This document shows, piece after piece, positions 652 through 49,848 of a DNA stretch of 54,067 nt. Both the position numbers and the translations under genes were made by a program. Position 1 is the first letter of the stretch. Each line of letters opens with the position of its first letter. The stretch is from NCBI GenBank assembly GCA_937868015.1, contig CALMLW010000153.1:1-54067 (forward strand), in the 5' to 3' direction. A model generated the notes under the pieces. It was not told the DNA's origin. It made no database searches and was given only the letters and a program-made list of their open reading frames with translations. This DNA is from an uncultured Synergistaceae bacterium. Its GTDB lineage: Bacteria > Synergistota > Synergistia > Synergistales > Aminiphilaceae.

Positions 652-1671
652 TCACTCGACAAGAAGCTGTCCCGCCCCCAACTCCGCCGCCCGGGCGAGG
701 GCCCGAGAGGCCCCCGCCAAGTCCTGCAACGCCATGCCTGTGACGTCAAAAAGGGTGATCTCCTCCTCCGAGGAGCGCCCCGGCGCTCGCCCCAGGAGGA
801 CCTCTCCGATCTCCCTCACCGATCCCTCTTCCAGAAAGCCCCGGTCCCGGGCATGGTGACACTCCCCCCGGGAGAAGGCCTGGGCCCGATCGTCGGCAAA
901 GACCCGGGCCTCTTCCAGCAACGAGGCCTCCACCTCCTGCTTTTCGGGCATGTCCGCCCCGATGGCGTTCACGTGGGTACCGGGGGAGATCCAGCCTTTC
1001 CATAGGATGGGAGTGGAGGCGGGGGTGCAGGTGACGATGAGCTCCGCCTCCCGAGCCGCAGCGGGCACCTCGTTCCACCCCAGGGGGCGCAGGGAAATCT
1101 GGGGAAAAAAGGGCGCCATATCTCCCACGAAGCGCCCCACCGCCAAGGCGTTGCGCCCCGCCACCGCCACGTCCCTCACGTGGGGAAGCGCGGCGGCGAT
1201 CCCCGCGAGCTGGGCCCGGGCCTGGCTTCCGGTACCTAGGATGAGCCCTCGGCGGATCCCGGGGCGGGCCAGAAGGCGGGCCCCCACGGCCCCCGCCGCA
1301 CCGGTGCGAAGCTCCGTGAGAGAGGCCCCATCCACCAATCCCAGGGGATGGCCCGTCTCCACGTCCATCACCACCACCAATCCCGCCAGGGCGGAAAGCC
1401 CCCGCTCCACGGGATTATCCCCGGCGTAGCCCATGACCTTGAGGCCGAAAAACCCCCGGGGAAAACCTTCTTCCCCCTCCCGCACCCAGCCGGACTTGAT
1501 GTCCATGTCCCGGAGCTCGGGCTCGAAGACCTGGGAAATTACGGGCCACCGCACCCCCTGGCCGGAAACATGCCACCGGTAGGCCCGCTCCACGCAGGCC
1601 ATCGCGTCTTCCATGGACAAAAGGGCGCGAAGATCTCGGGCGTTGAGATAGCGCATGCCGTAACTCTTCAC
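652..1671 (-). CDS. ornithine cyclodeaminase / mu-crystallin family NAD-dependent enzyme
   Basis: 339-aa ORF. Rossmann motif LILGTGSQARAQL and overall OCD/mu-crystallin family resemblance. GTG start with GAGGAGG RBS 8 nt upstream. 100 nt upstream of the dehydratase-like gene on the same strand. Confidence 0.85.
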   Translation of the reverse strand: MKSYGMRYLNARDLRALLSMEDAMACVERAYRWHVSGQGVRWPVISQVFEPELRDMDIKSGWVREGEEGFPRGFFGLKVMGYAGDNPVERGLSALAGLVVVMDVETGHPLGLVDGASLTELRTGAAGAVGARLLARPGIRRGLILGTGSQARAQLAGIAAALPHVRDVAVAGRNALAVGRFVGDMAPFFPQISLRPLGWNEVPAAAREAELIVTCTPASTPILWKGWISPGTHVNAIGADMPEKQEVEASLLEEARVFADDRAQAFSRGECHHARDRGFLEEGSVREIGEVLLGRAPGRSSEEEITLFDVTGMALQDLAGASRALARAAELGAGQLLVE

Positions 1672-3859: not shown

Positions 3860-5254
3860 CTACCCCTTGATCACCGCCACCGGGCGGAGCCTCGCCACCT
3901 TGAGGCTCAACCCCGCGCCCTGCACCACGTCCACCACGTGGGACACGTCCTTGTAGGCTTCGGGGGCCTCCTCGCCGAGGGTGTGGAGGTTCTCCGCCAT
4001 GACCGAAACCCCTCGTTTCGCCAGAGACCGCAGGAGATCCTTGGCCCCCGTCCTCTTCAGCGCCTCGGTGCGGCTCATGGTGCGCCCCGCGCCGTGACAG
4101 GTGGAGGCGAAGGTGCTTTCCTCCGCCTGGGGCGTTCCCACAAGCACGTAGCTCGCCGTCCCCATGCTGCCGGGGATCAGGACGGGAAGGCCCGCGAACG
4201 CCCGGGTCGCTCCCTTGCGGTGCACACAGAGGGTCCTTTTCCGGCCCTCCCACCGGTGCGTTTCCAGATGCGCCAGGTTGTGGCTGACATCCCAGACGGT
4301 ATACAGGGGCTCCCGGGGAAAGAACGCCTTGAAAACGCGCCGCACCGCGTCGGCGATCACGTGGCGATTCGTCATGGCAAAGTTCGCCGCCGCCCGCATG
4401 GCCCCCATGTACCGTTGCCCCTCCTCCGACGACACCGGCACGCCGCAGAGCTGGCGGTCGGGGACGTCGATGCCGTAATGTCCCATGGCCCGGCGCATGA
4501 TCTTCAGCGCGTCGTCGCACACCTGGTGCCCCAGCCCCCGGCTGCCGCAGTGGATCATCACCGCCACACATCCGGGAATGAGCCCCAGGCGGGCGGCGTC
4601 CTTTTCGCTGTAGATCTCGTCCACCATCTGGATCTCCACGAAATGATTTCCCGATCCCAGGGTACCCAGCTGGGTCCGGCCCCGGTCTTTGGCCCGCTCC
4701 GACACCTCTCCGGGAAGGGCTCCCTTGAGACATCCCCCCTCTTCGGTGTGCTCTCCATCGCCCTCGGTGCCAAAACCGTGCTTCACGGCCCACGCCACCC
4801 CGCCTTCCAACACCTGGTCAAGGTCTTTGGGAGAAAGGGGCTTACCTCCTCCGGAGACCGCCCCCGAAGGCACGGCGGAAAAAAGGGCGGGAAGGAGCTT
4901 GTCCACCACCCGGCCGAGGTCTTTTGCCGCGATGGAGGACGCGAGGAGGCGCACGCCGCAGGAGATGTCGTACCCCACGCCCCCGGGACTGATGATCCCC
5001 TCTTCCGCGTCGAAGGCGGCGACCCCGCCGATGGGAAAGCCGTACCCCCAGTGGATGTCCGGCATGGCGAAGCTGTATCCCACGATGCCGGGAAGGGTGG
5101 CCACGTGGGCCACCTGCAGGATGGCGTTGTCGTCCTCCCGCAGGGAGGCGATGTACTCGTCGGCGAAGATCATGCCGGGAACGCGCATGCCGGGCACCGC
5201 CCCCGGATGGAGCAGGAGGCGGGTGCCGTCGATCCGTTCCAAAAACTTTTTCAT
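3860..5254 (-). CDS. rtcB: RNA-splicing ligase RtcB (3'-phosphate/5'-OH RNA ligase)
   Basis: 464 aa with GSGNHF, HCGSRGLG and CHGAGR motifs characteristic of RtcB. GGGAGGG RBS 8 nt upstream. Confidence 0.95.
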   Translation of the reverse strand: MKKFLERIDGTRLLLHPGAVPGMRVPGMIFADEYIASLREDDNAILQVAHVATLPGIVGYSFAMPDIHWGYGFPIGGVAAFDAEEGIISPGGVGYDISCGVRLLASSIAAKDLGRVVDKLLPALFSAVPSGAVSGGGKPLSPKDLDQVLEGGVAWAVKHGFGTEGDGEHTEEGGCLKGALPGEVSERAKDRGRTQLGTLGSGNHFVEIQMVDEIYSEKDAARLGLIPGCVAVMIHCGSRGLGHQVCDDALKIMRRAMGHYGIDVPDRQLCGVPVSSEEGQRYMGAMRAAANFAMTNRHVIADAVRRVFKAFFPREPLYTVWDVSHNLAHLETHRWEGRKRTLCVHRKGATRAFAGLPVLIPGSMGTASYVLVGTPQAEESTFASTCHGAGRTMSRTEALKRTGAKDLLRSLAKRGVSVMAENLHTLGEEAPEAYKDVSHVVDVVQGAGLSLKVARLRPVAVIKG

Positions 5255-5270
5255 GCGGACATCCCTCCCG

Positions 5271-5687
5271 TCACAGATCCAGATAGAGCCGCAGGAAGGG
5301 GTGGGGAGAGCTCTCCAGCACCATGCCCCCGTACGTCGCCGCCTTCACCGCGATGCGCCCCCCCGGCGAAGGAAAGAGAAGTCCCTCGGCGACGAGGGCG
5401 GGGGGATGGGGCGTCACGGTGAGGGAGGTGGGGTGGAAAAAGACCCCTTCGCTCTCCAGGAGAAAAAGGAGCTCGTGGAGCCAAGAGACCACCAGTTCCT
5501 CAAGATCCAGGGTCTCCAGTCGGAGGACGCGGCTCTTTCCGGCGGTGCCCTCCGGGGGAAGGGGGGGAGCCCCGTCGAGGCAAAGGCAATAAAAACCCTC
5601 CGCCGCCTGCAGAAAAAGATCGTGCCACGAGGTGGCCCACACCTCCAACCCCGCATCGGCGGTGTGATCGATGATTTTCCATCCCAT
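5271..5687 (-). CDS. archease (RtcB activator)
   Basis: True start taken at MGWKIIDHTADAGLEVW (ATG at 5687, GGGAGG RBS). M-x-x-x-x-HTAD is the canonical archease N-terminus. The longer 250-aa ORF in the track is an Arg-rich high-GC extension. Stop is 16 nt upstream of rtcB. Confidence 0.85.
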   Translation of the reverse strand: MGWKIIDHTADAGLEVWATSWHDLFLQAAEGFYCLCLDGAPPLPPEGTAGKSRVLRLETLDLEELVVSWLHELLFLLESEGVFFHPTSLTVTPHPPALVAEGLLFPSPGGRIAVKAATYGGMVLESSPHPFLRLYLDL

Positions 5688-6056
5688 GGGGCTCCCTCCC
5701 CGACCGGCTCCAGGTAAAATGCCTCGACGAAAGGCTTCTCCCCCCTCCTCGCGCCCTTGGGCCGAGGGGCGCGGGCGTTGCCCCCGGAAACGTCTCCGGG
5801 AAACGCCTTCCCCTGTCGCTTTCCCCGTCGGCGGAATTTTTTTCGCCAGCGTCGGTCGTCGCCGGTGGATGGGGCCCACGGCCTCTCGCCGGGCCGAGGG
5901 GAGATTCCTACGCCGTCGCCAAAATTCCCCCTTCTTCCTAAGCGGCATCCTGGGGAGCGCCGCGATCTTTGCGTTGCGCCGGGCCGCCGGGCCGAGGGGC
6001 GGGAAATTTTCCCCACGCCCCACCGCCCCGTGGCCGGAGGCTTCTTCGGCGCCCTC

Positions 6057-9000
6057 TCACCGTCGGGCCCGTTCGCAGATTTCTTCTTCCGTCAGCGGGG
6101 CCCGGTCCGGGTGATGCGAGAGGCACAGGGGCACGCGCACCCGGCGAGGCGCCCCCCGGGGCGAAGCGAATTGAAAGGCCCCGCTTTCCAGCGTGGCGAT
6201 CTCTGCGGCAACGCTCCCCCGATCTTCGAGGAAGGATCTGATCTGATCGATGATGCGGGGGGTATTCGCCCGACCACAGAACCAGGTGCTCATGTTCGAC
6301 AGGGATCCGCCGTCGAGGTCTTTAGGGTTTTGGGTGGCCACCACCAGCCCCAGACCGTACTTTCGCCCCTGGGCCGCGAGACGCTGCAACCCCTGCTTAC
6401 AGGCGCTGGTGCGCACCGAAGGGAGAAAGTCCTTGGCCTCGTCCAGCACGATGAGGCCATTCATGCGCCCCGGGGCCTGGATGGGGGGATGGCGACGCGC
6501 CCAGGTCAGGAGGGACAGGACCACGTGCCCCACCACGATCTGACGGTTCCGGTCCCCCGGAACCCCCACAAGGCTCACCACTGACACGGGGGTGCGCCCT
6601 CCTTCGAGGGGGCGTCCCCACAGGATCTCCGGATCGGCCAAGGGCCCTTCGCCGAAGAGGACGGGGGCGGTGAACATGGCCGATTGCAGGTTGTCCGCCG
6701 CCTCCCGGGCCAGGGCGGAAGCGGCGGAGATCTCCCCCGCCGTCCCGGGGGGAAGTTGGCGCAGAAACCCCAGAAAGGCGTGGATGTCCCCCCCCTCGCC
6801 CTGGGCAAAGGTCTTCACCGCCGCCGCCAGGACCCCCGCCATCCGCTTCGCCTTGGCTCCGCTCCCCACCACCGCCAGATCCGTCAGCATATCCACGGTC
6901 ACGGTGGTCGCCAGCTGGAAGGCGTCGGCATCGTCCCGCAGCGCGGGGAAATCGGGCAGCCCCCGCAGGGCGAAGGGGCGCCCCCGGTCGCATCCCGGAG
7001 TCCAGATCCGGACCTCCGCCGTCTCGAAATACCGCTCCGCCCGAAGATCGTCTCCGGGATCCCATCCCTTGGGGGGGTCGGGCCAGCGGTCCCCCAGCTG
7101 GGCCAAATCCCCAGCGCTGTCGAACACCACCGAGGGAATGCCCGCCTGCGCCGCCTCTTCCACGAGGCGCTTGAGGAGCACGGTCTTGCCGCTGCCGCTG
7201 CCAGCCAACACCACCACGTGCCGGGCAAGGTCATCTGCCGAAAGGCGGGCCCGGGTGGTCTCTCCGGGGTCCCCCAGGACCACGACGGGGGCGTCATCGG
7301 AAGAGTGATCTCTCGCCTCCGGAGGCTGTGACACGCCCTCTCCCGACCCTCCGTCGCCTCCGCCGATCATGAGCCGCAGAGGGGCCAGGGATTCCAGGGA
7401 ACTCAAGGGTTTGCGCTCCCGCAGCCAGACTTTAAAGGCCCCCTCTTCTTCCGGAGCGGAGGCTCCGGAGAGTTCCTCTCCCATCCTGACCACCGCCGCC
7501 AGGGTCCGGAGGTCGTCTTCGACGGGGGGCATGAAGACTCCCCCCGCCTTCAAGAAATCCTCCGTGATCCGAGGTCCCACCTTACCCCCCAGGGGGATCC
7601 CTTCGGGACGGAGGATCACCAACCGCCGCCGGGAGAGGTGCCGGGCGATGCCCGATTCGACCATCGCCGCCTGCAGGCGGTGGTTGTAGGCCGTATGATT
7701 TTCCCGGAGCAGCACCCGGAGGCACACATGCCACTCCGCATCGACTCCCCCGGCGCCCGTCACCATGCGCTTCCATCGCAGGTGAATCGCCGGGCAGGAG
7801 CGTCGCCCCCCCGAGGCGCTCTCCACCTCGAAGAAGGTATTTTCCGGGGTTTCGAGCTCCTCCACGCACCGACGACACCCTGCGGCAAAGAGCTCTCCCA
7901 GGGCCCCCTCGGCCCGGTCGTCGTCCTCCAGGTAGGGGGCGATGTCGACCGAGGCCCGGAGCTCCTCCAGGCGGCCATCCAGGGCCTGGAATCGCGACGA
8001 CACGGCGGGGAGGGCCTCCCGAAAGGGGTCCGTCTCCGGCGACCCTAGCTCGCGGACCTCGCCGTGGGCGAGGCAGGCATCCCGGTGGCGGTGGCAGGCG
8101 CGCAGGATCTCCCGGGGGGAGTAGGTCTCCACAGCGGAGAAAAACTCCGGGGCAAAGGGCCAGGTGGAGTAGGGGGGGGAGAAGCTCCCCCGGGCCGCGT
8201 CGAGCCTCCTTTCCACCAGGTCGCGGGCGATGGAACTCTCGGAGACGGGAAGGAGTCGATGGGGCTCCGTGTACCGGTCGGCAAACGAGGCGGGAACGAG
8301 CTTTTTCAGGTGGTCCCACGTATCGCCGAAGCAGGCCACCACCGTCAGGGTGGAGGAATTGAGGCGGTCCCGCAGGGCTCCAAAGCCCTTGCCGATGTCC
8401 CCCAGGACCAATTTAGCCGTTTTGCCCTCTTCGCGGTCGGGGGCGTGGCGTGCGGCGTCCAGCAGGGGAAAGCAGTTGTCGAGCTGGTCGAAGGCCATCA
8501 GAGTGGGCCCTCGAAAGCTCAACATCCTAAAGATCCCCTGGATGAGATGCCCCGGATCGGGCTCGCACTGGACAAGGCCAAGCTGCATGCCGTCGAAGTC
8601 GTCGACCTTACTCCCCTGGAGCCACGCGGAGGCGAGGCTCCAGATGCGGAGGCAGGCCTCGTTATTCATGCCCATCAGGGCCCGGATCACGTCCAACGAA
8701 GGATGGGTGAAGCGGGTCCGGTGGCGTTGCCACAGGGCGTCCACCATGACTTTCGTCGCCCCGCGAAGGTCGTTCTCGCCGAGGGTCGCCACCTCGGCGG
8801 CGTACTCCAGCCCCTGGGCAAGGGTGGCGGAGCGCCCCGAGATGTCTTCGGCCTCCACGAAGAGGGCGGCGATGACGTGGCGCAGCTGGCTCACTCCCTC
8901 CACCTCCCGGGTGAGGGAATCGGCGAGGCCGAGCAGAAGGGTATGGTCGAAGGAGCGCACGTCGGTCATGTCCACGTAGACGAAGGTCACCCCTCGCTCC

Positions 9001-9278
9001 GTGGCCCTCCGGCGCAGCTCCCCCAGGAGGTGGGTTTTGCCCAGACCCGCATCGCCTTTGAGCACGATCCCCAAAGGGGTTTCCCCCGCCTGGGCCGAGG
9101 CCTCCACCCGGGCCAGAATGTCGGCGCGCACCCGATGGTGTAGCTCCGGCACGTCGCGGGGGTCGTCGAACCAGACGCTGCCGAGCTGGCGCGTGAAGGA
9201 GAAATCCGCTCGGCGGAGGTAGGCCAGATGCTCCGTAGAAGGCAAGACCATCGCTTCCTTTCGGTCCGTCGGGATCAC
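6057..9278 (-). CDS. 1073-aa protein with two complete P-loop NTPase modules: N-terminal STAND/ORC-like AAA module plus C-terminal HerA/FtsK-superfamily (DUF87-like) ATPase
   Basis: Walker A #1 VLKGDAGLGKTHLLGEL with hhhhD Walker B LMAFDQLD. Walker A #2 VVVLAGSGSGKTVLLKRL, Walker B/DEAH-like LIVLDEAKDF, and LVVATQNPKDLD (TQxP motif typical of HerA/VirB4-type ATPases). Start overlaps the upstream ORF stop by 4 nt (ATGA). Confidence 0.8.
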   Translation of the reverse strand: MIPTDRKEAMVLPSTEHLAYLRRADFSFTRQLGSVWFDDPRDVPELHHRVRADILARVEASAQAGETPLGIVLKGDAGLGKTHLLGELRRRATERGVTFVYVDMTDVRSFDHTLLLGLADSLTREVEGVSQLRHVIAALFVEAEDISGRSATLAQGLEYAAEVATLGENDLRGATKVMVDALWQRHRTRFTHPSLDVIRALMGMNNEACLRIWSLASAWLQGSKVDDFDGMQLGLVQCEPDPGHLIQGIFRMLSFRGPTLMAFDQLDNCFPLLDAARHAPDREEGKTAKLVLGDIGKGFGALRDRLNSSTLTVVACFGDTWDHLKKLVPASFADRYTEPHRLLPVSESSIARDLVERRLDAARGSFSPPYSTWPFAPEFFSAVETYSPREILRACHRHRDACLAHGEVRELGSPETDPFREALPAVSSRFQALDGRLEELRASVDIAPYLEDDDRAEGALGELFAAGCRRCVEELETPENTFFEVESASGGRRSCPAIHLRWKRMVTGAGGVDAEWHVCLRVLLRENHTAYNHRLQAAMVESGIARHLSRRRLVILRPEGIPLGGKVGPRITEDFLKAGGVFMPPVEDDLRTLAAVVRMGEELSGASAPEEEGAFKVWLRERKPLSSLESLAPLRLMIGGGDGGSGEGVSQPPEARDHSSDDAPVVVLGDPGETTRARLSADDLARHVVVLAGSGSGKTVLLKRLVEEAAQAGIPSVVFDSAGDLAQLGDRWPDPPKGWDPGDDLRAERYFETAEVRIWTPGCDRGRPFALRGLPDFPALRDDADAFQLATTVTVDMLTDLAVVGSGAKAKRMAGVLAAAVKTFAQGEGGDIHAFLGFLRQLPPGTAGEISAASALAREAADNLQSAMFTAPVLFGEGPLADPEILWGRPLEGGRTPVSVVSLVGVPGDRNRQIVVGHVVLSLLTWARRHPPIQAPGRMNGLIVLDEAKDFLPSVRTSACKQGLQRLAAQGRKYGLGLVVATQNPKDLDGGSLSNMSTWFCGRANTPRIIDQIRSFLEDRGSVAAEIATLESGAFQFASPRGAPRRVRVPLCLSHHPDRAPLTEEEICERARR

Positions 9279-9919
9279 GGCATCAACACCACGACGTGCT
9301 TGTCCGAAGCACCGATGCGAATCGCCGCCCGGCGGTCCTCGTCGGTGAGGGCGGACACGTCGTTATTCGCCTCCAGGGAGACGCGCCCCTCTTTCAGTAG
9401 CCCCAGGAGCAGGGCGTCCACCCGGTCCGGCGACCAAGGGGCCAGGGCCCCCTTGACCAGGGCCAGGGGCAGGCGGTCGCCCCCCTGGGATTTCGCCAAT
9501 CGCCCCATGACGTCGATGATGCGCCGGACCGGATCTCCATCCTCCGGGGGGGCGGGAGAGAAAATCGACGCCAAAGCCCCCCCCTTTTGCACCCACCCTT
9601 CCACCACTCGGAACAGAAAGGCCAGCATCTCCCGATCTCCCCGGGTGAGCCCCCGTTTGGTCGCCACGCGCTCCGCCATCGCCCCCAGGTGGGCATGGGC
9701 CCAACGCCACCCCTCGTCGGTGACGGCGGCGTATTTAGACCTTCCCCGGCGGGTGATCTCCACCAATCCCCCCTCCGTGAGGGGCTTGAGGTCGGCGGTC
9801 TTTTTCAGGCTTACCTGGCGGTGCAGCTCCGTGGCAGAGATGTCCTCCGCGCCCCGGGCCTCGCGCAGCAGGAGACAGTAGAACCATTCCAGGGCCTTCC
9901 CCTGAACTTCCATGGCCAT
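9275..9919 (-). CDS. 214-aa hypothetical protein, predicted tandem winged-helix-like; translationally coupled to the downstream NTPase
   Basis: ORF ends in ATGA overlap with the 1073-aa NTPase start. N-terminal segment (LLREARGAEDISATELHRQVSL...GGLVEITRRGRSKY) resembles a MarR/wH fold; a second helix-turn-rich segment is C-terminal. No confident family assignment. Confidence 0.6.
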   Translation of the reverse strand: MAMEVQGKALEWFYCLLLREARGAEDISATELHRQVSLKKTADLKPLTEGGLVEITRRGRSKYAAVTDEGWRWAHAHLGAMAERVATKRGLTRGDREMLAFLFRVVEGWVQKGGALASIFSPAPPEDGDPVRRIIDVMGRLAKSQGGDRLPLALVKGALAPWSPDRVDALLLGLLKEGRVSLEANNDVSALTDEDRRAAIRIGASDKHVVVLMP

Positions 9920-10024
9920 CCCCCCAAAAAGTCATCCCCCCGGACAAAGAGATCCCCGGGGAATCGTCCCCCACGCCCCCCTTCGAGTCCCGCCCCCGGG
10001 GGGACGCATGGAAATCTACGGTCA

Positions 10025-10054
10025 ATCATAGCGACGGGGGCCGAAAAAGACAAA
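10025..10054 (-). promoter_or_regulatory. candidate sigma70-type promoter (TTGTCT-17-TATGAT on minus strand) about 105 nt upstream of the wHTH/NTPase/archease/rtcB gene string
   Basis: Reverse complement reads TTGTCTttttcggcccccgtcgcTATGAT. AT-rich hexamers are conspicuous in the GC-rich background. Confidence 0.3.
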
Positions 10055-10111
10055 CGATAGTTCTTCCCGGAGGCCGGGGCATCGAGGGGGGATAATGCCG
10101 GCATTTTTCCC

Positions 10112-10140
10112 TTGATGAGGGTCCTCCGGATTGCTATCAT
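10112..10140 (+). promoter_or_regulatory. candidate sigma70 promoter TTGATG-17-TATCAT for the gene at 10238
   Basis: cccTTGATGagggtcctccggattgcTATCATgg about 100 nt upstream of the ATG. Followed by direct repeat CTAGAGAGAGA x2 at 10202-10224. Confidence 0.4.
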
Positions 10141-10237
10141 GGCTCCCATCGCCCCCGGGCCTCCGCCAGAACGGCGCCCCATCGGGGCAGGGATTTTTTC
10201 CCTAGAGAGAGACCTAGAGAGAGAAAGGAAGGCTCCC

Positions 10238-10669
10238 ATGACCCCCATCCTCATAAGACATTACGTCCATCCCCAGCGCAGCGAGGCGGAGAACGCCACG
10301 GGGCTCACCCTGGGGCGGCTGATCTCCGCCCACGCGCCGCGCTTTGCCGCTCTGGATCTTTCCCTGGATCTGGAGGTGGTGCCCTGCGACGCCCCGGAGG
10401 ACCGAAACCGCGTCACCTTTTCCTATCCCGTGCCCTCGGATGACGAAGAGCCCCCCCAGGATCGGGAACGCTCCCTGGAGGATCTCTTGGGTCTAGGGGT
10501 CGTGGTGTCCCCCGGAGCGCCCCATCGCACCCTGGTTTACGAAGGCCAGGCCTACGACGCCATTCCCCCGGGACTCCTGGCGGACGGCCTCCTGCGGGTG
10601 GCCATGGCCCTCATGGGGGGCGGAGGGTGTGGCTCTTCCTGCGCGGGGTGCCAGGGGTGTGGGGCCTAG
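10238..10669 (+). CDS. hypothetical protein with C-terminal Gly/Cys-rich tail (GGGGCGSSCAGCQGCGA)
   Basis: ATG at 10238 with AAAGGAAGG RBS (the track's longer ORF from 10112 has no RBS). 143 aa. Precedes the PduO-type adenosyltransferase gene. Confidence 0.5.
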   Translation: MTPILIRHYVHPQRSEAENATGLTLGRLISAHAPRFAALDLSLDLEVVPCDAPEDRNRVTFSYPVPSDDEEPPQDRERSLEDLLGLGVVVSPGAPHRTLVYEGQAYDAIPPGLLADGLLRVAMALMGGGGCGSSCAGCQGCGA

Positions 10670-10786
10670 GGACGCACTCAAAGGCAATTTAAGGCGATTC
10701 GGCTCGGCCGGGGCCCGCACCGGCCGAGCTCCGGCGAAGGCCCGATGGTAAGGAAAAGGGGCCCCGCCACGAAAGGAGAGAAGATC

Positions 10787-11314
10787 ATGGATGGAGTTTG
10801 GCTGGTCACTCGAGGGGGAGACAAGGGAGAAACCTCTTTGGGCGACGGAGAGCGGGTGCCCAAGGATTCCCCTCGGGTGGAGACCTATGGCACGCTGGAC
10901 GAGTGTCAGGCCGCCCTGGGGCTGGCCCGGAGCCTCTGCCCCTTCGATGACTTGGGGCAGGAGATCCTGCGCCTGGAAGATCACCTGGGCTCCGTCATGG
11001 GGTACTTTGCCGCCTACCCCGGCATGGAAGAGCCCGACGTCACTCTGCTGGACGGCGTGGTGGAAAGGGTTCGGGGCGTGGTGGGAGACTCCTTCTCCTT
11101 CGTGCGTCCCGGGGACTCCGCCCCGGGGGCGGCGCTACACCTGGCCCGGACCGTGGCCCGCCGGGCGGAGCGCTCCGCCGTGAAACTCTACCGCATGAAC
11201 CAGCTCTCCGACCAGGCCTATGCCTACATCAACCGCCTGTCCGACGCCATCTACGCCCTATCGCTCTGGGCCGACAAGGCCAGTAAGGACCGCACCGCCC
11301 CATCTTCAAAATAG
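10787..11314 (+). CDS. PduO-type ATP:cob(I)alamin adenosyltransferase
   Basis: Start at MDGVWLVTRGGDKGETSLGDGERVPKDSPRVETYGTLDE (AAAGGAGAG RBS 7 nt upstream). GDxGxT and RVETYGTLDE are signature PduO/MMAB motifs. Confidence 0.85.
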   Translation: MDGVWLVTRGGDKGETSLGDGERVPKDSPRVETYGTLDECQAALGLARSLCPFDDLGQEILRLEDHLGSVMGYFAAYPGMEEPDVTLLDGVVERVRGVVGDSFSFVRPGDSAPGAALHLARTVARRAERSAVKLYRMNQLSDQAYAYINRLSDAIYALSLWADKASKDRTAPSSK

Positions 11315-11318
11315 CTTC

Positions 11319-11370
11319 GTGCCCCTCCGACGAAGCCGGAGAGGGAGGAAGGCCTTCGGCGGAGGGGCAC
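11319..11370 (+). terminator. GC-rich stem-loop (11-bp stem GTGCCCCTCCG/CGGAGGGGCAC with structured loop) starting 5 nt after the adenosyltransferase stop; no U-tract
   Basis: Perfect 11-bp inverted repeat seen directly. The loop contains a second imperfect inverted repeat (GAAGCC...GGCCTTC). Confidence 0.45.
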
Positions 11371-11413
11371 GCCGTGGAACGAATGGGTCGTGGCATATTT
11401 TCCCCGGAAGCCC

Positions 11414-11419
11414 TATAAT
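11414..11419 (+). promoter_or_regulatory. perfect TATAAT -10 hexamer about 58 nt upstream of the GntR-family gene; -35 is weak
   Basis: cccTATAATgg in a 70 % GC context. Upstream hexamer (TGGCAT/GTGGCA) is a poor match to TTGACA. Confidence 0.35.
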
Positions 11420-11476
11420 GGTATGGAGCCTTCAGCATACAAAAAACCTGACATCGCCCGCGCGAGGAGGTCCCCC

Positions 11477-12151
11477 ATGCCAGACAACCCTCTGTCCCCG
11501 ACCCAGAACATCGACCTGCGACAGATCGTCTACGAGAAGATAAAGGAGGCCATCCTGGATGGCATCATCCACCCCGGGGAGCGCCTCTCCGAGGTGGATC
11601 TGGCCGAAAAGCTCACCGTGTCTCGGACGCCGGTACGGGAGGCCATTCGGCAGCTCGCGGAAACCAAGCTCGTGGCCCTCATCCCCCGCAAGGGGGCCTA
11701 CGTGGTGCTCCTGTCGGTGCAGGACGCCAAGGACCTCTACGAGCTCCGGAGCGCCCTGGAGTGCTGTGCCCTGACCCACCTCTGCCAGAATCCCCCCGCA
11801 GAAGCCCTGCAGGAGGTGCGGGCCGTCTTCGACGGCTTCAACGATTCCATGTCTCAATTCATCCACTACGATCGCCAATTCCACAGCATCATCCGAAGCG
11901 GATCGGGCAACAAGTTTCTTAATAGCGTTTTGGACAACGTGGTGGACCTCATCCAGCTCTGCCGTCGCTACGCCCTGGAGGTGGTCCCCCTGGCCACCTC
12001 GGCGGCGGAACACGTGGGAATCATCGATGCCATCCTCGCCCGGGACGTGGAAAAAAGCCAACGCCTCCTCCGGGATCACCTGCGGCGGGCCTCGGAATCC
12101 CTGGCCACCTACCTGGAAAAACACCCGGAGTTCTCCCGACAGACGCCCTGA
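11477..12151 (+). CDS. GntR-family transcriptional regulator (FadR/FCD C-terminal domain)
   Basis: ATG at 11477 with GAGGAGG RBS. N-terminal wHTH (LSEVDLAEKLTVSRTPVREAIRQL) followed by an FCD-type ligand domain. Confidence 0.8.
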   Translation: MPDNPLSPTQNIDLRQIVYEKIKEAILDGIIHPGERLSEVDLAEKLTVSRTPVREAIRQLAETKLVALIPRKGAYVVLLSVQDAKDLYELRSALECCALTHLCQNPPAEALQEVRAVFDGFNDSMSQFIHYDRQFHSIIRSGSGNKFLNSVLDNVVDLIQLCRRYALEVVPLATSAAEHVGIIDAILARDVEKSQRLLRDHLRRASESLATYLEKHPEFSRQTP

Positions 12152-12190
12152 CCTCTCTTCCATCGATGCCGACAAAAAGGAGGTTTCTCT

Positions 12191-12976
12191 GTGGAACAAG
12201 GATGGGGTTTTGTGATCTATAAGGCGGTGGCCTCCCTCGCGCTCCCCCCGGGGCTTTTGGTGCTGGGACTGGCCCTTTTGGGGCTCGGGGCCCTGCGCCC
12301 GCCCCGGCGCCGGGGGCTGGGGTTTACCCTTTTGACCCTTTCTGTGGCGATCTACGGTATGAGCACCCCCTTCGGCGCCCAGGCACTCCTGGGCACGCTG
12401 GAATCCCCCTGGAAGGCCGATATTCCCCCTCAGGATCGGCGGTGGGGAGTACTGGTGCTGGCGGGAGGAGTGATCGTGAGGGACGGAGAGCCGGCGGAGC
12501 TCAATTCGTTCACCCTGGCCCGGCTGGTGGGGGGATGGGAAGCGGCCCGACAGGGCCCCTGGCCCATGATCGTGAGCGGCGGCCCTTCTCTGGAGGCCCC
12601 CCAGGCCCCCTCTCTAGGGGCCCTCATGGAGGAACGCCTCCGCCGTTGGGGGTACGAAGGCACGGTATGGCGGGAAGAAACTTCTCGTAACACCTGGGAA
12701 AACATGACGGCCTCGAAGGCCATCGTGGTCTCGGAAGACCTGGAGGGCGTCATCGTGGTCACCGATGCCTTTCACATGTCCCGCTCCATGGCCATGGCCC
12801 GGAGAGCCCTGCCGGTGGCGGTACGCCCCTATCCTGTGGGCTTTCTGGTGGACCGGCGCCCCATCACGTTCTGGGATTTCCTCCCAAACCCCGGGAGCTT
12901 GCACCACAGCATGATCGGCCTGAAGGAATACTTAGGGCTCTTTGCCTACGACCTCTACGGCTTCCTTTTCTCGTAG
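12191..12976 (+). CDS. DUF218 (YdcF/ElyC/SanA-like) domain membrane-anchored protein
   Basis: GTG start with AAAGGAGG RBS 7 nt upstream. N-terminal TM segment. VIVVTDAFHMSRS motif typical of DUF218. Confidence 0.7.
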   Translation: MEQGWGFVIYKAVASLALPPGLLVLGLALLGLGALRPPRRRGLGFTLLTLSVAIYGMSTPFGAQALLGTLESPWKADIPPQDRRWGVLVLAGGVIVRDGEPAELNSFTLARLVGGWEAARQGPWPMIVSGGPSLEAPQAPSLGALMEERLRRWGYEGTVWREETSRNTWENMTASKAIVVSEDLEGVIVVTDAFHMSRSMAMARRALPVAVRPYPVGFLVDRRPITFWDFLPNPGSLHHSMIGLKEYLGLFAYDLYGFLFS

Positions 12977-13031
12977 CCTTCTCGTGGCCGCCCGGCCAGC
13001 GCCCCGTCCCCTTCTTTTCCCGGAGACTCGA

Positions 13032-14705
13032 TTAAAACCTCTCTTCTCCTTCAAACAGCCGGGCCATGAGGGGTTCCGCGCTCCTTCCTTCCCCCAGGGC
13101 CTCCTCCATCTCCTCCGCCAGACGCTTTAGGTCATCCCGACCACACTGCGCCGCAGAGGATCCGAGCCTTTCCGCCAGGATGCGGGCCTCTTCTTCGTTT
13201 CCCGCGACCCAGGCTCGCCGGAGGGCCGTGCGGATCAGGGGGAGCTCGGCGGCAAAGGCCTCTTCCATGGAGAGCCTATCGGCCTCGTCCTGGGGCGGGG
13301 AGACGGCCCCGTCGTAGCCCGTCCACTGGGCCACCAGGTCCCAGAGCAGCTTCCGGGGCACGGGCTTCAGGGCGTAGTCGTCCATCCCCGCCTCCAGGGC
13401 TTCCAGGGCGGTCCCCGCTCCCCCCGCCGTGAGGGCCACCACGGGCACGGTGAACCCCCGGCGGCGCAGCTCTCGCGTAGCGGCGATGCCATCCATGTGG
13501 GGCATGAGGATGTCCATGATCACCAGATCGGGGCTCCAGAGCCCCACGATCCGCAGGGCATCCAGGCCGTCTTCGGCGGTATCCACCGTGCACCCCGCTT
13601 TTTTCAGGGCGTCGGCGATGATGGCCCGATTGGTAGCGTTGTCATCCACCACCAGCACCCGGGGGGGGGTGAGGCGCTTCCCCACGTCCTTGCGCCTCAA
13701 CCCCAGCACCAGGGGCACGCGGATCTTCCACAGAAGACCTCCGGCGCTGGCGCTCTCCTGCCAGGAGAGGGAAAACATGTCCAGGAGGTATCGCACCTCC
13801 CGGGAGAGCACCCCGGGGGGGCCCGTAAAAGACCCCGCTTCCAACACGCACTCCATCTCGGCCCCCGAAGGGCGAAGGATGCAGGCCACCCCCTGGGCTC
13901 CCCGCTCTCCGTAGGCGTATTGGATCATGAGGGCCAGAAGAAGCACCGCCCCCTGGGAAAGGCGCCCCCGAGGGGGGAAACGCCCTGCGGAGAAGGCCCA
14001 TTCCCGCTTTTCCAGGAAGGCCCAGGCCTCCCCCAGGGACTGAATCCGCCGGGATACGTCGTGACAGGCCAGAAAGACCGACCCCAGATGGGCCATGTCG
14101 GGCAGGGCCATGACATCGATGCCCCCTTGGAGCAGGGCCAAGGCGGCGGTGACACGGTTTCTCCCGTCCTCCGAAGGGGGGCAGGTCCCCCCATCCAGAG
14201 CCAGTTCCAGGGTCCACAGCGGAGTCCGAAGGAGATGGCCCCCCAAGCGGATTTTATCGGCCATCATGCGGCCGTAGAAGGCGTCCAGGGCCATCACGGC
14301 GGCGACGGCGACGCCCTCCAGGTCCCGGATCTTTCCCGCCGACAGCCCCCCGGCGGGGTTGCCCACGCCGAACCACTCGTCTCCGGAGATGCCGGAAACC
14401 ACGGCGTCCATCGAGGATGCCACTTCCACGCCCCCGAGGATCACGCCGTTTTTCCGCCCCAGGGCCCCCGGACCTTCGGGGCGCCCGGCGTCGAGCGACG
14501 CCAGCTCCTCGGGAGAAAGGGGATTCAGGCGCCTTCCCATGGAAGTGAAAAGCCAGGCGGCCCTCCGGGGAGGGGCGCAACGCCACACCGCCAGGGGAGC
14601 GAGAAATCGATCGCACAAAAACTCCAAAAGTTCCCGGGCAAAGGTGCCCTCGTCCGGGGCGTGGCGTAGACGGCGCAACAGAGAAGGGGCGAGACGTTCT
14701 TCCAT
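13032..14705 (-). CDS. response regulator: N-terminal about 330-aa uncharacterised (GAF-like?) region, CheY-like receiver, C-terminal HPt-like helix lacking the phospho-accepting His
   Basis: Receiver motifs VLVVDDNATNR...DLVIMDILMPHMDG...LTAGG. C-terminal LAERLGSSAAQCG aligns with the HPt consensus aHsLKGsaanlG but with Glu in place of His. AAGGAGGT RBS. Confidence 0.8.
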   Translation of the reverse strand: MEERLAPSLLRRLRHAPDEGTFARELLEFLCDRFLAPLAVWRCAPPRRAAWLFTSMGRRLNPLSPEELASLDAGRPEGPGALGRKNGVILGGVEVASSMDAVVSGISGDEWFGVGNPAGGLSAGKIRDLEGVAVAAVMALDAFYGRMMADKIRLGGHLLRTPLWTLELALDGGTCPPSEDGRNRVTAALALLQGGIDVMALPDMAHLGSVFLACHDVSRRIQSLGEAWAFLEKREWAFSAGRFPPRGRLSQGAVLLLALMIQYAYGERGAQGVACILRPSGAEMECVLEAGSFTGPPGVLSREVRYLLDMFSLSWQESASAGGLLWKIRVPLVLGLRRKDVGKRLTPPRVLVVDDNATNRAIIADALKKAGCTVDTAEDGLDALRIVGLWSPDLVIMDILMPHMDGIAATRELRRRGFTVPVVALTAGGAGTALEALEAGMDDYALKPVPRKLLWDLVAQWTGYDGAVSPPQDEADRLSMEEAFAAELPLIRTALRRAWVAGNEEEARILAERLGSSAAQCGRDDLKRLAEEMEEALGEGRSAEPLMARLFEGEERF

Positions 14706-18572: not shown

Positions 18573-19802
18573 CTAGAAGGTCTCCCACCCGCGCTTGAGA
18601 GGGCGGGGTTCGGGCCGGGGCCCGGGAACGGGGCGGATCTCCGCCTCGCTCCACTCCCCCTTTAGGAGGCTCAGGGCGCTTCGAATTTCCTCCGGCAGCA
18701 CGCCCCCCTGCTCCATCTCAAGTTCCAGCACCACCCGACGGGAGGGCCCCTCCCGCCCCACCCGAAAGTCCCGGATGTCCCGCACCCCCCACAGGATTTC
18801 CGCCACGTCGTAGAGCCCCGGGGCCTCCGCCGTGCCGAGACGCCCCCGCACCTCCAGGCGGCGCAGGGGGGAGCCGCAGGGGCACGGGCCGGGGATCAGG
18901 CGCCCCTCGTCACCGGTGCGGTAGCGGATCAGGGGAAAGGTGGAGCGGGTCAGGGTGGTGATCACCACCTCGCCCCAGCTTCCGGATGGCACGGGGTGCC
19001 CCCCCGGGGACACCACCTCCGTGAGAACCTCCCCTTCCCGCAGGTGCCCCCCCTCGTGGGCGCCGCACTCCAGGGCCATGCCCCACCCCACCTCGGTGAG
19101 GCCGTAGTGGTCGAAGATCTCCCCGGGCCAAAGGCGCGCGATCCGACGGCGGAGCGCCGGGGGGAACATGTCCCCGCTCGCCAAAACCGCCTCGGGGACG
19201 TGGCGCGCGACGCGGGCCACCCGCAGGAGCGCTTCGGGCATGCCCACCACCACCCGGGGGTTGAAGGCGTCGATCCGGGCGGCGGTTTTTCGGGGATCTT
19301 CCCCCACGCCCCCCACCTCCACCGCACATCCGAGCTCCCCCAGGGCTTCCCGCAACAGGGCCCCCACGCTCCCGGGGCGATCTCCCCGGAAGAGCACCGT
19401 CACCCGGCTTCCCGGGGGCGTAAAGGCGGTGAGCCCCACGCGGAAAAACTCCCGGGTGGCGGCGAGGTCGGCGTAGGTGAAACAAAGCCTCTTGGGGGGA
19501 CCGGTGCTACCGGAGGTGGCGAGGGTCACGATGCGGGCCACCTCGCTCTGGGACACGGTGAGAAAATCCCCCTCCCGTCCCGCCAGATCGGAAGGATAGG
19601 TGAAGGGGAGCTCCTCCAGAGGAGCCCCCTCTCTTCCCCGGAGCCGGGAGGCGTAAAGGGGCGAATCCTGGGCCGCCCGGGCCACCAGGGCCCGGAGCCG
19701 CTCCTTCTGGAAGGCCTCCAGGGCGGCGCGCCCCGCCAGGGGGGCACCTTCCCCCAGACATCGGGCGCACCAGAGATCCAGGGGCGTGGAGCGAAGGCTC
19801 AT
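18573..19802 (-). CDS. PaaK / coenzyme F390 synthetase-like adenylate-forming ligase
   Basis: Start MSLRSTPLDLW at 19802 in ATGA overlap with the radical SAM gene stop. AMP-binding motif TSGSTGPPK and C-terminal PaaK-like domain. Confidence 0.8.
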   Translation of the reverse strand: MSLRSTPLDLWCARCLGEGAPLAGRAALEAFQKERLRALVARAAQDSPLYASRLRGREGAPLEELPFTYPSDLAGREGDFLTVSQSEVARIVTLATSGSTGPPKRLCFTYADLAATREFFRVGLTAFTPPGSRVTVLFRGDRPGSVGALLREALGELGCAVEVGGVGEDPRKTAARIDAFNPRVVVGMPEALLRVARVARHVPEAVLASGDMFPPALRRRIARLWPGEIFDHYGLTEVGWGMALECGAHEGGHLREGEVLTEVVSPGGHPVPSGSWGEVVITTLTRSTFPLIRYRTGDEGRLIPGPCPCGSPLRRLEVRGRLGTAEAPGLYDVAEILWGVRDIRDFRVGREGPSRRVVLELEMEQGGVLPEEIRSALSLLKGEWSEAEIRPVPGPRPEPRPLKRGWETF

Positions 19803-48306: not shown

Positions 48307-49623
48307 TCAATCCCGTCGGGCCCCGCACTCGGGGCAGAACTTCGCCCCCGGGGACATTTCGGCGCCGCAGGCGGCGCATTTGAGGGGGCCGGGGGTCAAG
48401 GTTTGGCCGCACCCCGGGCAGAACTTCGTGCCGGGGGGACTGGAGGCGCCGCACCGGGGACAGGGCAGGGGGCGAGGGGCGCCGCACTTGGGGCAGGCCG
48501 AAGCCCCCTCGGGCAGATCCGCACCGCAGGTGGGGCAAGGGTCGTAGCGATCGCCGCACGCGGGGCAGAACTTGGCCCCCCGGGGCAGGGACCCTCCGCA
48601 CCGGGAGCAGAGGGCGGGAACGGAGTTCTCCAGAAGGGCCCCGCAGGAAAGGCAAAACCGGGCCCCGGGAGGGTTCAAAGCCCCACAGCGGGGGCAGGGG
48701 GTGGCGCCCGTGGGGCTCAAGGAGCCCGCCATGGAGGCGGCGGCGCCGCCGAAGGCCCCGCCCATTCCCACTCCCATGCCCAGCCCCAACCCCGCCCCCA
48801 GGAGGGTGCCGCTGCTCCCCTCGTTGGAGGCGGCGGCCTGCAGGGTGTCGAAGGTCCTCATCTGCTGGTAGTTGTAACCCACGATGTCCATGCGGGCCTT
48901 TTCCGCCAGGGCCTTCTTGAGCTCCGCCACGGCGGGGTCGTCCTCCGGAATATTGATGGAGTTCACAAAGAAATTGGGCACCTCGATGCCGTACTCTTCC
49001 ACGACGGAGGCGAGGCGCTCCCGGATGTGTCCGGACATGTCGTCCAGATGGGCGTTCACTTCCACCACGCTGATGCCCTGCTTCACCAGGTAGGAAGAAA
49101 TCAGGTCCTTGGCCTTGGTGAGGACGAGCCCCCGGAAGAGGGTGTTCAGGTGCTCCTGGTCGAAGAGTCTCACGGTGCCCACCAGTTTCACCAAGAACTT
49201 CCGGGCGTCGGCCACCCGGACGCCGAATTGGCCGAAGGAGCGCACGGGCAAAAAGACCTTGTATCGGGGGTCCTGGATCTGGATGGGATCGGGGGTGCCC
49301 CACTTGACGTTGAGCATCGACACTTTGTTGACGAACCACACTTCTGCCTTGAAGGGGGACTCTCCTCCGAAGGGGAGCCTCAGGAGCCCCGCCAAAAGGG
49401 GCACGTTGGCCGTCCCCAAGGTGTGGCGCCCGGGAGCGAAAAGATCAAGCGCCTGGCCGTTTTTAAACAGGATGGCCTCCTGGGATTCCCGCACCACCAG
49501 CTGGGTCCAGGTGCCCAGCTCATCGCTCCGCTCCGGCTGGGCCGGATTCGTGTACTTCCACGCCAGCACGGGCACTTCCCGCGTCACTGGCTCGTCCCAC
49601 TCCACCACCTGCACCAGCGCCAT
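48307..49623 (-). CDS. SPFH (band-7)-domain protein with five tandem C-terminal zinc-ribbon repeats
   Basis: Start MALVQVVEWDEP at 49623 with GGAGGAGGTG RBS. SPFH-like core, then 5 x CPxCGA...PxGAKFCPxCG repeats. Confidence 0.75.
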   Translation of the reverse strand: MALVQVVEWDEPVTREVPVLAWKYTNPAQPERSDELGTWTQLVVRESQEAILFKNGQALDLFAPGRHTLGTANVPLLAGLLRLPFGGESPFKAEVWFVNKVSMLNVKWGTPDPIQIQDPRYKVFLPVRSFGQFGVRVADARKFLVKLVGTVRLFDQEHLNTLFRGLVLTKAKDLISSYLVKQGISVVEVNAHLDDMSGHIRERLASVVEEYGIEVPNFFVNSINIPEDDPAVAELKKALAEKARMDIVGYNYQQMRTFDTLQAAASNEGSSGTLLGAGLGLGMGVGMGGAFGGAAASMAGSLSPTGATPCPRCGALNPPGARFCLSCGALLENSVPALCSRCGGSLPRGAKFCPACGDRYDPCPTCGADLPEGASACPKCGAPRPLPCPRCGASSPPGTKFCPGCGQTLTPGPLKCAACGAEMSPGAKFCPECGARRD

Positions 49624-49848
49624 GCCCTCACCTCCTCCACCATCAGGCGCCCATCCGCCCAGGGTCCATTTTAGCACAAAAGGGCCCCCTTTCTCAAAAC
49701 CAGCATGAAAAAGTCACAAAGTTGTCACGCTTTTTCCCGGGACAACCTCCCGGACGGGGGGAACTCCTTGCCTTTATCCTCCCCCAGGGAGACAATGGTC
49801 CCGTCGGGGGAGGCACCCCGAAGAGCGTTTCACGAGGAGGTCTTGGCC

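Follow-up and report, generated by a model that had tools for sequence, protein, structure and literature searches.

A dual-ATPase and tandem winged-helix gene pair upstream of archease and rtcB in a Synergistaceae bacterium: a probable effector-less member of a predicted HerA/FtsK capture class

Does a tightly packed gene pair that lies upstream of archease and rtcB serve RNA repair, or is it the core of an anti-invader module with no tie to these neighbors? This question is raised by two genes, here termed B and C, on a 54,067-nucleotide stretch of DNA from an uncultured Synergistaceae bacterium (the window, considered at its full length; Table 1). An earlier note had reported open reading frames of 214 and 1073 amino acids at this site; their coordinates proved to be exact, and the ORF check indicated that both genes are real. 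The same note described an ATGA overlap between them; a 4-nt overlap does exist if gene C begins with the GTG codon at positions 9278-9276, which runs into the TGA stop codon of gene B (9277-9275), but its letters are GTGA. An ATG codon situated 27 nt further downstream (9251-9249) follows the sequence AAGGAAG and agrees with the N-termini of the homologues. NCBI begins the protein there (P0001, 1064 aa), and this ATG is the likelier start of gene C. Depending on which of the two candidate starts is used, genes B and C overlap by 4 nt or are separated by 23 nt, and the junction is tight in both cases. A divergently oriented 185-aa ORF (10112-10669) was considered as a further component and rejected; its conservation is limited to the Synergistaceae.

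Table 1. Positions of genes, domains and motifs in the window; invariance refers to full-length homologues of gene C
Feature	Residues	Position	Strand	Remarks
RtcB		3860-5254	(-)	PF01139, 8.7e-158
Archease		5271-5687	(-)	PF01951, 4.6e-18
Gene C		6057..9278	(-)	1073-aa dual ATPase; 1064 aa with a start at ATG 9251
Gene B		9275..9919	(-)	214 aa, tandem winged-helix protein; ORF and translation
Promoter-like site TTGTCT-17-TATGAT		10025..10053	(-)	~105 nt upstream of gene B; consensus match only
Gene B, wH1	~7-66
Gene B, helical linker	68-120
Gene B, wH2	~130-212
Gene C, Orc/Cdc6/TnsC-like AAA+ module	~45-365	8184..9146	(-)
Gene C, GDAGLGKTHLL	74-84
Gene C, Walker A of module 1, GDAGLGKT	75-82	9033..9056	(-)	G75, G78, G80, K81, T82 invariant
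Gene C, Walker B of module 1, LMAFDQLD	260-267	8478..8501	(-)	D264, Q265, D267 invariant
Gene C, REase-shaped alpha-beta-beta-beta-alpha-beta insert	454-557	7608..7919	(-)	AF2 secondary-structure order
Gene C, helix-rich region after insert	565-638	7365..7586	(-)	AF2 secondary structure
Gene C, flexible linker between halves	640-662	7293..7361	(-)	low-confidence, pLDDT ~30
Gene C, HerA/FtsK-superfamily motor ATPase	665-1050	6129..7286	(-)
Gene C, Walker A of module 2, GSGSGKT	693-699	7182..7202	(-)	G695, G697, K698 invariant
Gene C, Walker B of module 2, LIVLDE	942-947	6438..6455	(-)	D946, E947 invariant
Gene C, LDEA	945-948
Gene C, RKYG motif	972-975	6354..6365	(-)	R972, K973, Y974 invariant
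Gene C, ATQNP	981-985			Q983 invariant

The gene C protein contains two complete P-loop modules, as had been claimed, and every motif quoted for them was located in its amino acid sequence; the invariance of individual residues was scored across 28 full-length homologues. Pfam places AAA_22/AAA_16 at residues 61-128 and DUF87/HerA/AAA_10 at residues 673-729 and 940-1018, and the AF2 model has a pLDDT of 85.1. The original description of the protein as a STAND/ORC-like plus HerA/FtsK-like dual NTPase holds for the ORC-like N-terminal module and for the HerA/FtsK-like C-terminal module, but STAND is not the most fitting label for module 1. The structural neighbors of module 1 are initiator-clade AAA+ proteins (TnsC, ORC2, Cdc6, DnaA, BrxC) and not NLR/Apaf-type STANDs; gene C does not combine a STAND core with a C-terminal sensor repeat in the manner of the NACHT, NB-ARC and Avs proteins, and its NACHT/nSTAND Pfam matches are P-loop matches on module 2 only. 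A sequence search of the PDB with the N-terminal half of gene C returned just weak, generic AAA+ matches. A helical insertion of about 125 amino acids (residues 131-254) separates strand 2 of the AAA+ module from its Walker B motif. In the insert at residues 454-557, E456, H499, E515, H517 and R521 are conserved, and column conservation revealed no D...(D/E)xK triad; the insert is presumed to be catalytically inactive. No PDB match was obtained with a sequence profile of this segment. The following helix-rich region of the model would, by position only, take the place of the C-terminal winged helix of Orc/Cdc6 proteins.

The C-terminal motor lacks a HAS barrel, and an insert of four helices interrupts it at residues 784-870 (6669-6929). 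Its RKYG sequence presumably corresponds to the arginine-finger motif known from HerA/VirB4 ATPases that form rings. Soluble domains cover the whole AF2 chain, and no membrane anchor was found in it. Gene B was modeled by AF2 with a pLDDT of 84.5 and displays an H-b-H-H-b-b topology two times; a Foldseek search against the PDB retrieved wHTH proteins exclusively (the SelB tandem wH, AspA, MarR/ArsR, ScpB and Pol III C34), and these data corroborate its reading as a tandem winged-helix protein.

A survey of 185,579 species genomes with the RKYG motif as the search pattern recovered full-length relatives of gene C at more than 566 loci (~0.3% of species), and the family comprises 1,696 clusters at 50% identity (E<1e-30). 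Its members are scattered over the Actinomycetota, Alphaproteobacteria, Planctomycetota, Cyanobacteria, Myxococcota, Synergistaceae and other groups. A homologue of gene B is found directly upstream and in the same orientation in 83 of 87 loci, with a median offset of -24 nt relative to where the tblastn match of gene C starts, and it evolves faster than its partner (20-25% family identity versus 30-37% for gene C). One member (P0110) possesses a 410-aa C-terminal extension for which no PDB match was found. Phage records contained no member of the family, a single partial match to a viral contig aside, and two metagenome scans yielded no close relatives. A conjugative coupling protein, a VirB4 protein or a housekeeping FtsK paralogue was rejected as an identity for gene C, given that only a single locus of the 87 falls within a T4SS element, that carriage on plasmids is close to nil (3 of 72,556), and that the flanks are heterogeneous. 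RefSeq labels the family members only as 'DUF87 domain-containing protein' or 'hypothetical protein', and PADLOC 2.0, NCBIfam and Pfam hold no dedicated model for them.

Archease and rtcB do follow the pair in the same orientation, across a gap of 369 nt (370 nt in the earlier note), and RtcR is indeed absent: no sigma54-activator motif was detected in the six frames of the window, and a scan of 30 of its larger ORFs gave no match to Sigma54_activat. This arrangement has prompted the proposal that the pair senses damage and regulates, or cooperates with, archease-rtcB, thereby standing in for the missing RtcR. The failure to find a strong intrinsic terminator in the 369-nt gap would be in keeping with such a role, as would a 22-nt motif that precedes gene B and is found again in the gap before archease. 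However, tblastn searches with the RtcB and archease proteins of the window detected neither gene within 10 kb of the pair at any of the 87 related loci. In the sister Synergistaceae contigs L088 and L095, the pair occupies the same chromosomal site at 60-67% identity, and cobD and nitroreductase genes follow it instead of archease and rtcB. The 22-nt motif is missing from L088 and has a further copy within an unrelated gene; as a 21-22-nt flanking repeat, it was likewise dismissed as an att site or operator because of its chance-like character. Searches for a structured RNA or riboswitch in the gap produced only sub-threshold Rfam matches, and its fold does not surpass that of shuffled sequences (z -0.13). 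All structural relatives, moreover, act on DNA. Taken as a whole, we regard a function in RNA repair as extremely improbable, and an operon of the RtcR-RtcBA type was rejected on the basis of the lacking rtcB linkage and sigma54-activator domain. The comparison of gene neighborhoods thus speaks against the RNA-repair link that had been envisioned: the adjacency to archease-rtcB is a coincidence of this lineage, and the module is functionally independent. The practical result for the window is negative, and the RtcB/RNA-repair connection should, in our view, be dropped.

What, then, does the pair do? Most relatives possess a third coupled gene upstream, which encodes either a DUF559 protein (43-54 of 83 related loci) or a TIR protein together with a ParA-like ATPase (8 loci). 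The DUF559 protein is a PD-(D/E)xK endonuclease with a Vsr-type fold, and its catalytic signature is intact (D287, E298, D300 and H305 are invariant). The TIR and ParA/CATASP proteins co-occur in exactly the same 8 loci, a variant that matches PADLOC PDC-M28B at 1e-25. The earlier alternative of a defence system or a regulator of RNA repair can be narrowed down: with neighboring effector genes that change between DUF559 and TIR from genome to genome, the pair behaves as a self-contained accessory unit of the conflict type, and a tie to RNA repair found no support. We suggest, with a probability of roughly 0.6, that genes B and C represent the conserved core of an Orc/Cdc6-coupled HerA/FtsK capture-type anti-invader module in an effector-less, minimal form; the defence role itself is proposed through guilt by association.

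Neither DUF559, TIR nor any other recognizable effector gene adjoins the pair in the window, and tblastn searches with DUF559, ParA-like and other upstream clusters uncovered no remnant of such a gene. One might view this copy, accordingly, as a decaying, non-functional remnant that has lost its effector gene. This is very unlikely, since both ORFs are intact and have kept all catalytic motifs, lineages that share only 65-67% identity likewise keep an uninterrupted 3.2-kb ORF, and two-gene forms recur in several phyla (e.g., at loci L006, L014, L015, L018, L020, L023 and L076).

The genomic surroundings bear on two further interpretations. The 133 flanking ORFs represent 184 Pfam families and are not conserved between loci; recurrent restriction-modification, integrase, transposase or recombinase genes were not found among them. 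The flanks show no enrichment of classical defence or mobility genes, and there is no defence-island signal, which weighs against the anti-invader reading, as does the scarcity of the family on plasmids and in phages and viral contigs. In the Synergistaceae, the pair resides in a housekeeping region with host-like GC content and seems to be vertically retained, a further point against that reading. Such stable retention amid ordinary metabolic genes, the archaeal and Deinococcus HerA proteins of HerA-NurA complexes as top structural matches, and the Vsr-type fold of DUF559 would all suit an accessory DNA-repair or end-processing machine resembling HerA-NurA, in which the motor feeds DNA ends to the Vsr-like nuclease for genome maintenance. 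We consider this unlikely in view of the very patchy distribution of the family over many phyla, the replacement of the nuclease by the TIR/ParA module, and the failure to find NurA among the flanking genes examined. Furthermore, the cassette is found in toxin-antitoxin islands and in an integrative conjugative element: in Tsukamurella, rpsQ and rplN enclose an insertion that comprises the cassette, VapBC and a DEAD helicase, and at locus L006 it is located inside the T4SS element and adjoins AbiE. A selfish, transposon-like mobile module or its domesticated remnant, in which a TnsC-like AAA+ regulator would join a TnsA-like nuclease of REase fold and a DNA pump for the sake of their own spread, is quite improbable: the identical position of the pair in two diverged Synergistaceae lineages and the lack of recurring transposase, integrase or recombinase genes in the flanks speak against it, multiple copies per genome were not seen, and the flanking repeat does not stand out from the many pairs that arise by chance in this GC-rich DNA.

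The anti-invader reading gains a framework from Rakesh, Aravind and Krishnan (NAR 2024; PMC10853773), who predicted computationally a class of Orc/CDC6-coupled 'HerA/FtsK capture systems', a class also cited in PMC12839542. [quoted passage not shown] Gene C has the first and the third of these features, its insert is predicted to be REase-shaped and sits at the iREase position, and gene B has two predicted wHTH domains. An active REase-fold nuclease, from either of two REase families, is according to the same text 'usually' encoded in the neighborhood, as it is in most relatives of the window pair, and neighborhoods are mobile and patchy in both cases. This wording allows membership of the window pair in spite of its missing nuclease gene, yet marks it as a reduced variant. 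It differs from the described systems also in that a single 1073-aa polypeptide unites all ATPase parts, and the variant of its relatives with TIR and ParA/CATASP goes unmentioned in the text consulted. Judged by the described domain set, the window pair is a probable new member of the predicted class. The label 'undescribed' is too strong, such a domain set having been predicted; our literature search found neither a name nor an experiment for this class.

Other HerA-containing systems can be distinguished from the pair. The HerA proteins of SIR2-HerA and DUF4297-HerA (Gao_Her/Nezha) possess an N-terminal HAS barrel, lack an ORC-like AAA+ module and a winged-helix partner, and are coupled to effector families other than DUF559 and TIR; membership was rejected, as no SIR2 or DUF4297 gene is present and the N-terminal 640 residues of gene C form the AAA+ module. 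PADLOC HerA models align only to its C-terminal third (residues ~890-1050). With respect to DndFGH/DptH and TdpAB, the PADLOC DndH models do not match beyond the HerA domain, and Dnd/Ssp modification genes occur in none of the neighborhoods examined. In comparison with BrxC/PglY of BREX, the methyltransferase, PglZ, BrxA/B and the DUF499 C-terminal region are missing, and the C-terminal half of gene C is of the HerA/FtsK type instead. The best PADLOC match was to mad8 of MADS (PDLC04140; 3.9e-19, residues 667-1041), but it spans no more than the generic HerA-like ATPase domain, the window has none of the seven remaining mad genes, and mad2/3/6-like neighbors were noted in just 1-2 of the 133 flanking ORFs. 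MANTIS/Gao_RL and MADS were rejected as unrelated to the pair except for a generic ATPase domain.

In the capture-type mechanism that we propose, the winged-helix protein and the ORC-like module would recognize the DNA of an invader and use ATP to assemble on it; the HerA/FtsK ring would then pump this DNA and either present it to the nuclease or activate the TIR effector. Since the window lacks an effector gene, its core would act alone, use an unlinked effector, or only sense. We doubt that two-gene forms without an effector confer immunity autonomously, with no need for a dedicated nuclease. In one version of this idea, the ORC-like loader and the winged-helix subunit would load the ring, and ATP-driven capture or extrusion would by itself neutralize the invading DNA; in another, the conserved Glu/His/Glu/His cluster of the REase insert would be a real catalytic site; in a rarer one, the core would have been co-opted together with archease-RtcB in this Synergistaceae lineage.

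The family to which the capture-type core belongs is large (more than 566 species, ~1,700 clusters), tidy in its architecture and clear in its swapping of nuclease and TIR effectors. Testing it would for the first time open the predicted 'HerA/FtsK capture' logic to experiment. In this logic an ORC-type loader is combined with a DNA pump, a principle on which parts of Dnd, BREX-related and other systems have been proposed to rest.

The gene pair lies on the minus strand of the window, and both open reading frames, coding for proteins of 214 and 1073 amino acids, were found where the earlier note had placed them (see the table). The motifs quoted there (GDAGLGKTHLL, LMAFDQLD, GSGSGKT, LDEA and ATQNP) were all recovered in the translation of the large gene (gene C), while its 4-nt overlap with the small gene (gene B), previously read as ATGA, is in fact GTGA. 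An alternative ATG start codon for gene C, preceded by AAGGAAG, is present 27 nt downstream of this GTG; it is the start assigned by NCBI to P0001, a protein of 1064 amino acids that is 99% identical to the gene C product, and the N-termini of the homologues agree with it.

Coordinates of the features discussed, in the window unless a locus of a relative (L-number) is named
Feature	Position	Strand	Remarks
Gene B (small winged-helix protein)	9275-9919	minus	214-aa ORF
Gene C (dual ATPase)	6057-9278	minus	1073-aa ORF
Archease	5271-5687	minus	co-oriented with the pair
RtcB	3860-5254	minus	co-oriented with the pair
Gap, archease to gene C	5688-6056		369 nt
GCCCCTCGGCCC, three copies	5759, 5891, 5989	minus	within the gap
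22-nt motif	6000-6021	minus	36 nt past the gene C stop
22-nt motif	9958-9979	minus	40 nt before the gene B ATG
22-nt motif, third copy	19291-19312		within AMP-binding enzyme gene
185-aa ORF	10112-10669	plus	diverges from gene B
Tandem duplication, CCTAGAGAGAGA x2	10201-10224		perfect
SPFH/Band-7 protein	48307-49677	minus	456 aa
TIR variant, L054 (Lentzea)	7121-13081		four genes
TIR variant, L043, L047, L050, L052, L060, L068, L079			
HTH-TPR variant, L005	7156-9387		
HTH-TPR variant, L063, L084, L085, L032			
Gene C counterpart, L088	10680-13868		1078-aa frame
Tsukamurella tyrosinosolvens island, L093 (NZ_LR134464.1)	5562-14600		roughly 9 kb

The AlphaFold2 model of the gene B product (pLDDT 84.5) exhibits two winged-helix (wH) domains with helices joining them, and its structural neighbours are all wHTH proteins. 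The earlier domain reading, a tandem wH protein next to a dual NTPase, was essentially right, except for the STAND label of the first ATPase module, for which ORC-like fits instead. The HerA/FtsK motor in the confident AlphaFold2 model of the gene C product (pLDDT 85.1) has no HAS barrel, and four helices are inserted into it at residues 784-870. The ATPase modules are separated in the model by an alpha-beta-beta-beta-alpha-beta unit (residues 454-557) whose predicted topology is of the PD-(D/E)xK nuclease type; no conserved D...(D/E)xK was found in this unit in the homologue alignment, and E456, H499, E515, H517 and R521 are conserved instead. Helices make up the stretch after this REase-like unit (565-638), and a disordered linker (640-662) comes next. 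The two Walker A/B pairs do not vary across 28 full-length homologues, and neither does an RKYG motif. One family member, P0110 (1500 aa), possesses a 410-aa C-terminal extension (residues 1090-1500) that has no match in the PDB by sequence; an effector or sensor domain may have been fused there.

Systems of this type have already been predicted in silico as 'HerA/FtsK capture systems' by Rakesh, Aravind and Krishnan (NAR 2024; PMC10853773); calling the pair undescribed, as had been done, says too much. According to their description, five elements come together in mobile neighbourhoods, encoded as a single polypeptide or as several: an Orc/CDC6 AAA+ ATPase; a REase without activity, inserted after the AAA+ core and before its C-terminal wHTH; a further REase that is active; a HerA/FtsK ATPase, one version of which has a four-helix insert; and a wHTH, sometimes accompanied by an extra fast-evolving protein with 2-4 wHTHs. 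The Orc/Cdc6 part is proposed to localise the apparatus on DNA, and the HerA/FtsK pump to intercept invader DNA in segregation, transfer or packaging and to pass it to the nuclease, a proposal restated by the same group in 2026 (PMC12839542). Compared by the published description, the pair agrees with this class feature by feature (for the inactive REase, by position and predicted topology), except that the active REase is missing in the window; the window system is probably a reduced member of the predicted class. Our literature searches brought up no experiments on members of the class, and PADLOC 2.0, NCBIfam and Pfam hold no model for the full gene C protein or for the pair. RefSeq names the products of the three-gene cassette 'DUF559 domain-containing protein', 'hypothetical protein' and 'DUF87 domain-containing protein'. 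In L088, a contig of a sister Synergistaceae lineage, the source annotation consists of two ORFs in antisense orientation and a fragment of 136 amino acids, but tblastn recovers one intact frame that is 65% identical to the window protein; the source gene call is wrong.

The make-up of the cassette in relatives was compared by clustering the ORFs of 87 fetched loci. A gene B homologue is located directly upstream of, and co-oriented with, gene C in 83 of them. Usually, a third gene is tightly coupled to the pair on its upstream side. Its product is swapped between loci: in 43-54 of them, it is a protein of ~360 amino acids with a C-terminal DUF559 (Vsr/REase-fold) domain, in which D287, E298, D300 and H305 are invariant, while 4-5 loci carry an HTH-TPR protein. 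The DUF559 form occurs, for example, in Xanthobacter autotrophicus (L026), Methylobacterium (L072) and Tsukamurella (L093). In exactly eight actinobacterial loci, this position is occupied by a TIR protein (about 205 aa) and a ParA/MinD-like ATPase (about 550 aa; PADLOC PDC-M28B, 1e-25) with a CATASP-like C-terminus, followed by the wH and dual-ATPase genes. In the TIR class, His517, a conserved residue of the insert, is exchanged for Trp. In the HTH + TPR-like variant, a protein of 630-743 amino acids is coupled upstream of the wH gene instead of the nuclease. The third gene is absent, as in the window, from at least about 10 loci in several phyla, and the pair is intact in two sister Synergistaceae contigs; that the window copy is a decaying remnant appears very doubtful to us.

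A word-indexed protein search returned only 31 relatives of the gene C product; an exhaustive profile search (E<1e-30) yielded 1,696 clusters at 50% identity. A one-genome-per-species scan detected more than 566 loci, patchily distributed over Actinomycetota, Alphaproteobacteria, Planctomycetota, Cyanobacteria, Myxococcota and others, with about 30-37% identity to the window protein across its full length. The cassette is almost absent from the plasmids, phages and viral contigs searched. Its flanks are heterogeneous (184 Pfam families among 133 ORFs) and contain few PADLOC matches, and no defence-island signal was found among these ORFs. One copy resides within a T4SS element beside AbiE. The Tsukamurella cassette belongs to an island between rplN and rpsQ that splits a ribosomal protein operon. 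Besides the DUF559-wH-dual ATPase genes, this island comprises VapBC, a BTAD fragment, a DEAD/DEAH helicase and two hypothetical genes; the record, named 'plasmid 22', is probably a piece of the chromosome since core ribosomal protein genes are aboard. In the window, the region around the pair has a host-like GC content (about 0.67-0.69) and no tRNA genes, the ORFs scanned include no integrase or transposase, the source names of identical proteins are those of a Synergistaceae genome, and the neighbours are housekeeping genes (ornithine cyclodeaminase, nitroreductase, AzlCD, PduO-type adenosyltransferase, GntR, MgsA). A selfish or domesticated mobile module is a quite improbable reading of the pair.

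Archease and rtcB are indeed co-oriented downstream of the pair, and no sigma54-type RtcR was found in the window by a motif scan of all six frames or by Pfam searches with the larger ORFs, both as previously noted. The RNA-repair link proposed from this arrangement was not borne out: a search within 10 kb of the pair turned up neither rtcB nor archease at any of the 87 loci. The two sister contigs, whose small and large proteins are 60% and 65-67% identical to those of the window, have the intact pair at an identical site in the chromosome, after HAD, MgsA, response regulator, DUF218, GntR, PduO and a conserved small ORF, and it is followed by cobD and nitroreductase genes in place of archease, rtcB and azlCD. 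Hence, the adjacency to rtcB is a peculiarity of the window's lineage. The gap has no Rfam match above threshold, and its full length does not fold better than shuffled versions; directly after the gene C stop, there is a GC-rich hairpin without a T-run. A role of the pair in regulating or serving RNA repair is not supported, a link to RtcB is scarcely credible, and the position beside the RNA-repair genes is a coincidence.

Further observations concern the surroundings of the pair. Two copies of a 22-nt motif (GGGGCGTGGGG.A..ATT.CCC) bracket the two-gene cassette; none was found in L088. The shuffle statistic for this motif is circular because the pattern was taken from the copies themselves, and it may be an operator, an insertion scar or a chance occurrence. 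The divergent ORF probably starts at M43, giving about 143 amino acids. Its C-terminus (GGGGCGSSCAGCQGCGA) is rich in Cys, and Pfam gave no match; the ORF is a lineage-specific neighbour, since it is conserved (about 70%) only in the sister Synergistaceae contigs and absent from all other loci. The tandem duplication lies in the promoter region between this ORF and gene B. The SPFH/Band-7 protein, with several zinc-ribbon (DZR) repeats, is unrelated to the pair.

We suggest, with a probability of roughly 0.6, that the pair is the core of a capture-type anti-invader module. Recognition of DNA would fall to the ORC-like module together with the wH subunit, the HerA part would form a ring, and invader DNA would be pumped to the DUF559 nuclease, or TIR would be activated. 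The weakest points of this capture reading are the lacking defence-island signal and the lacking effector in the window; that the pair instead serves as a DNA-repair machine seems unlikely to us. A defence function is what we infer for these proteins, and the family, known by computation, is an attractive and abundant candidate defence family.
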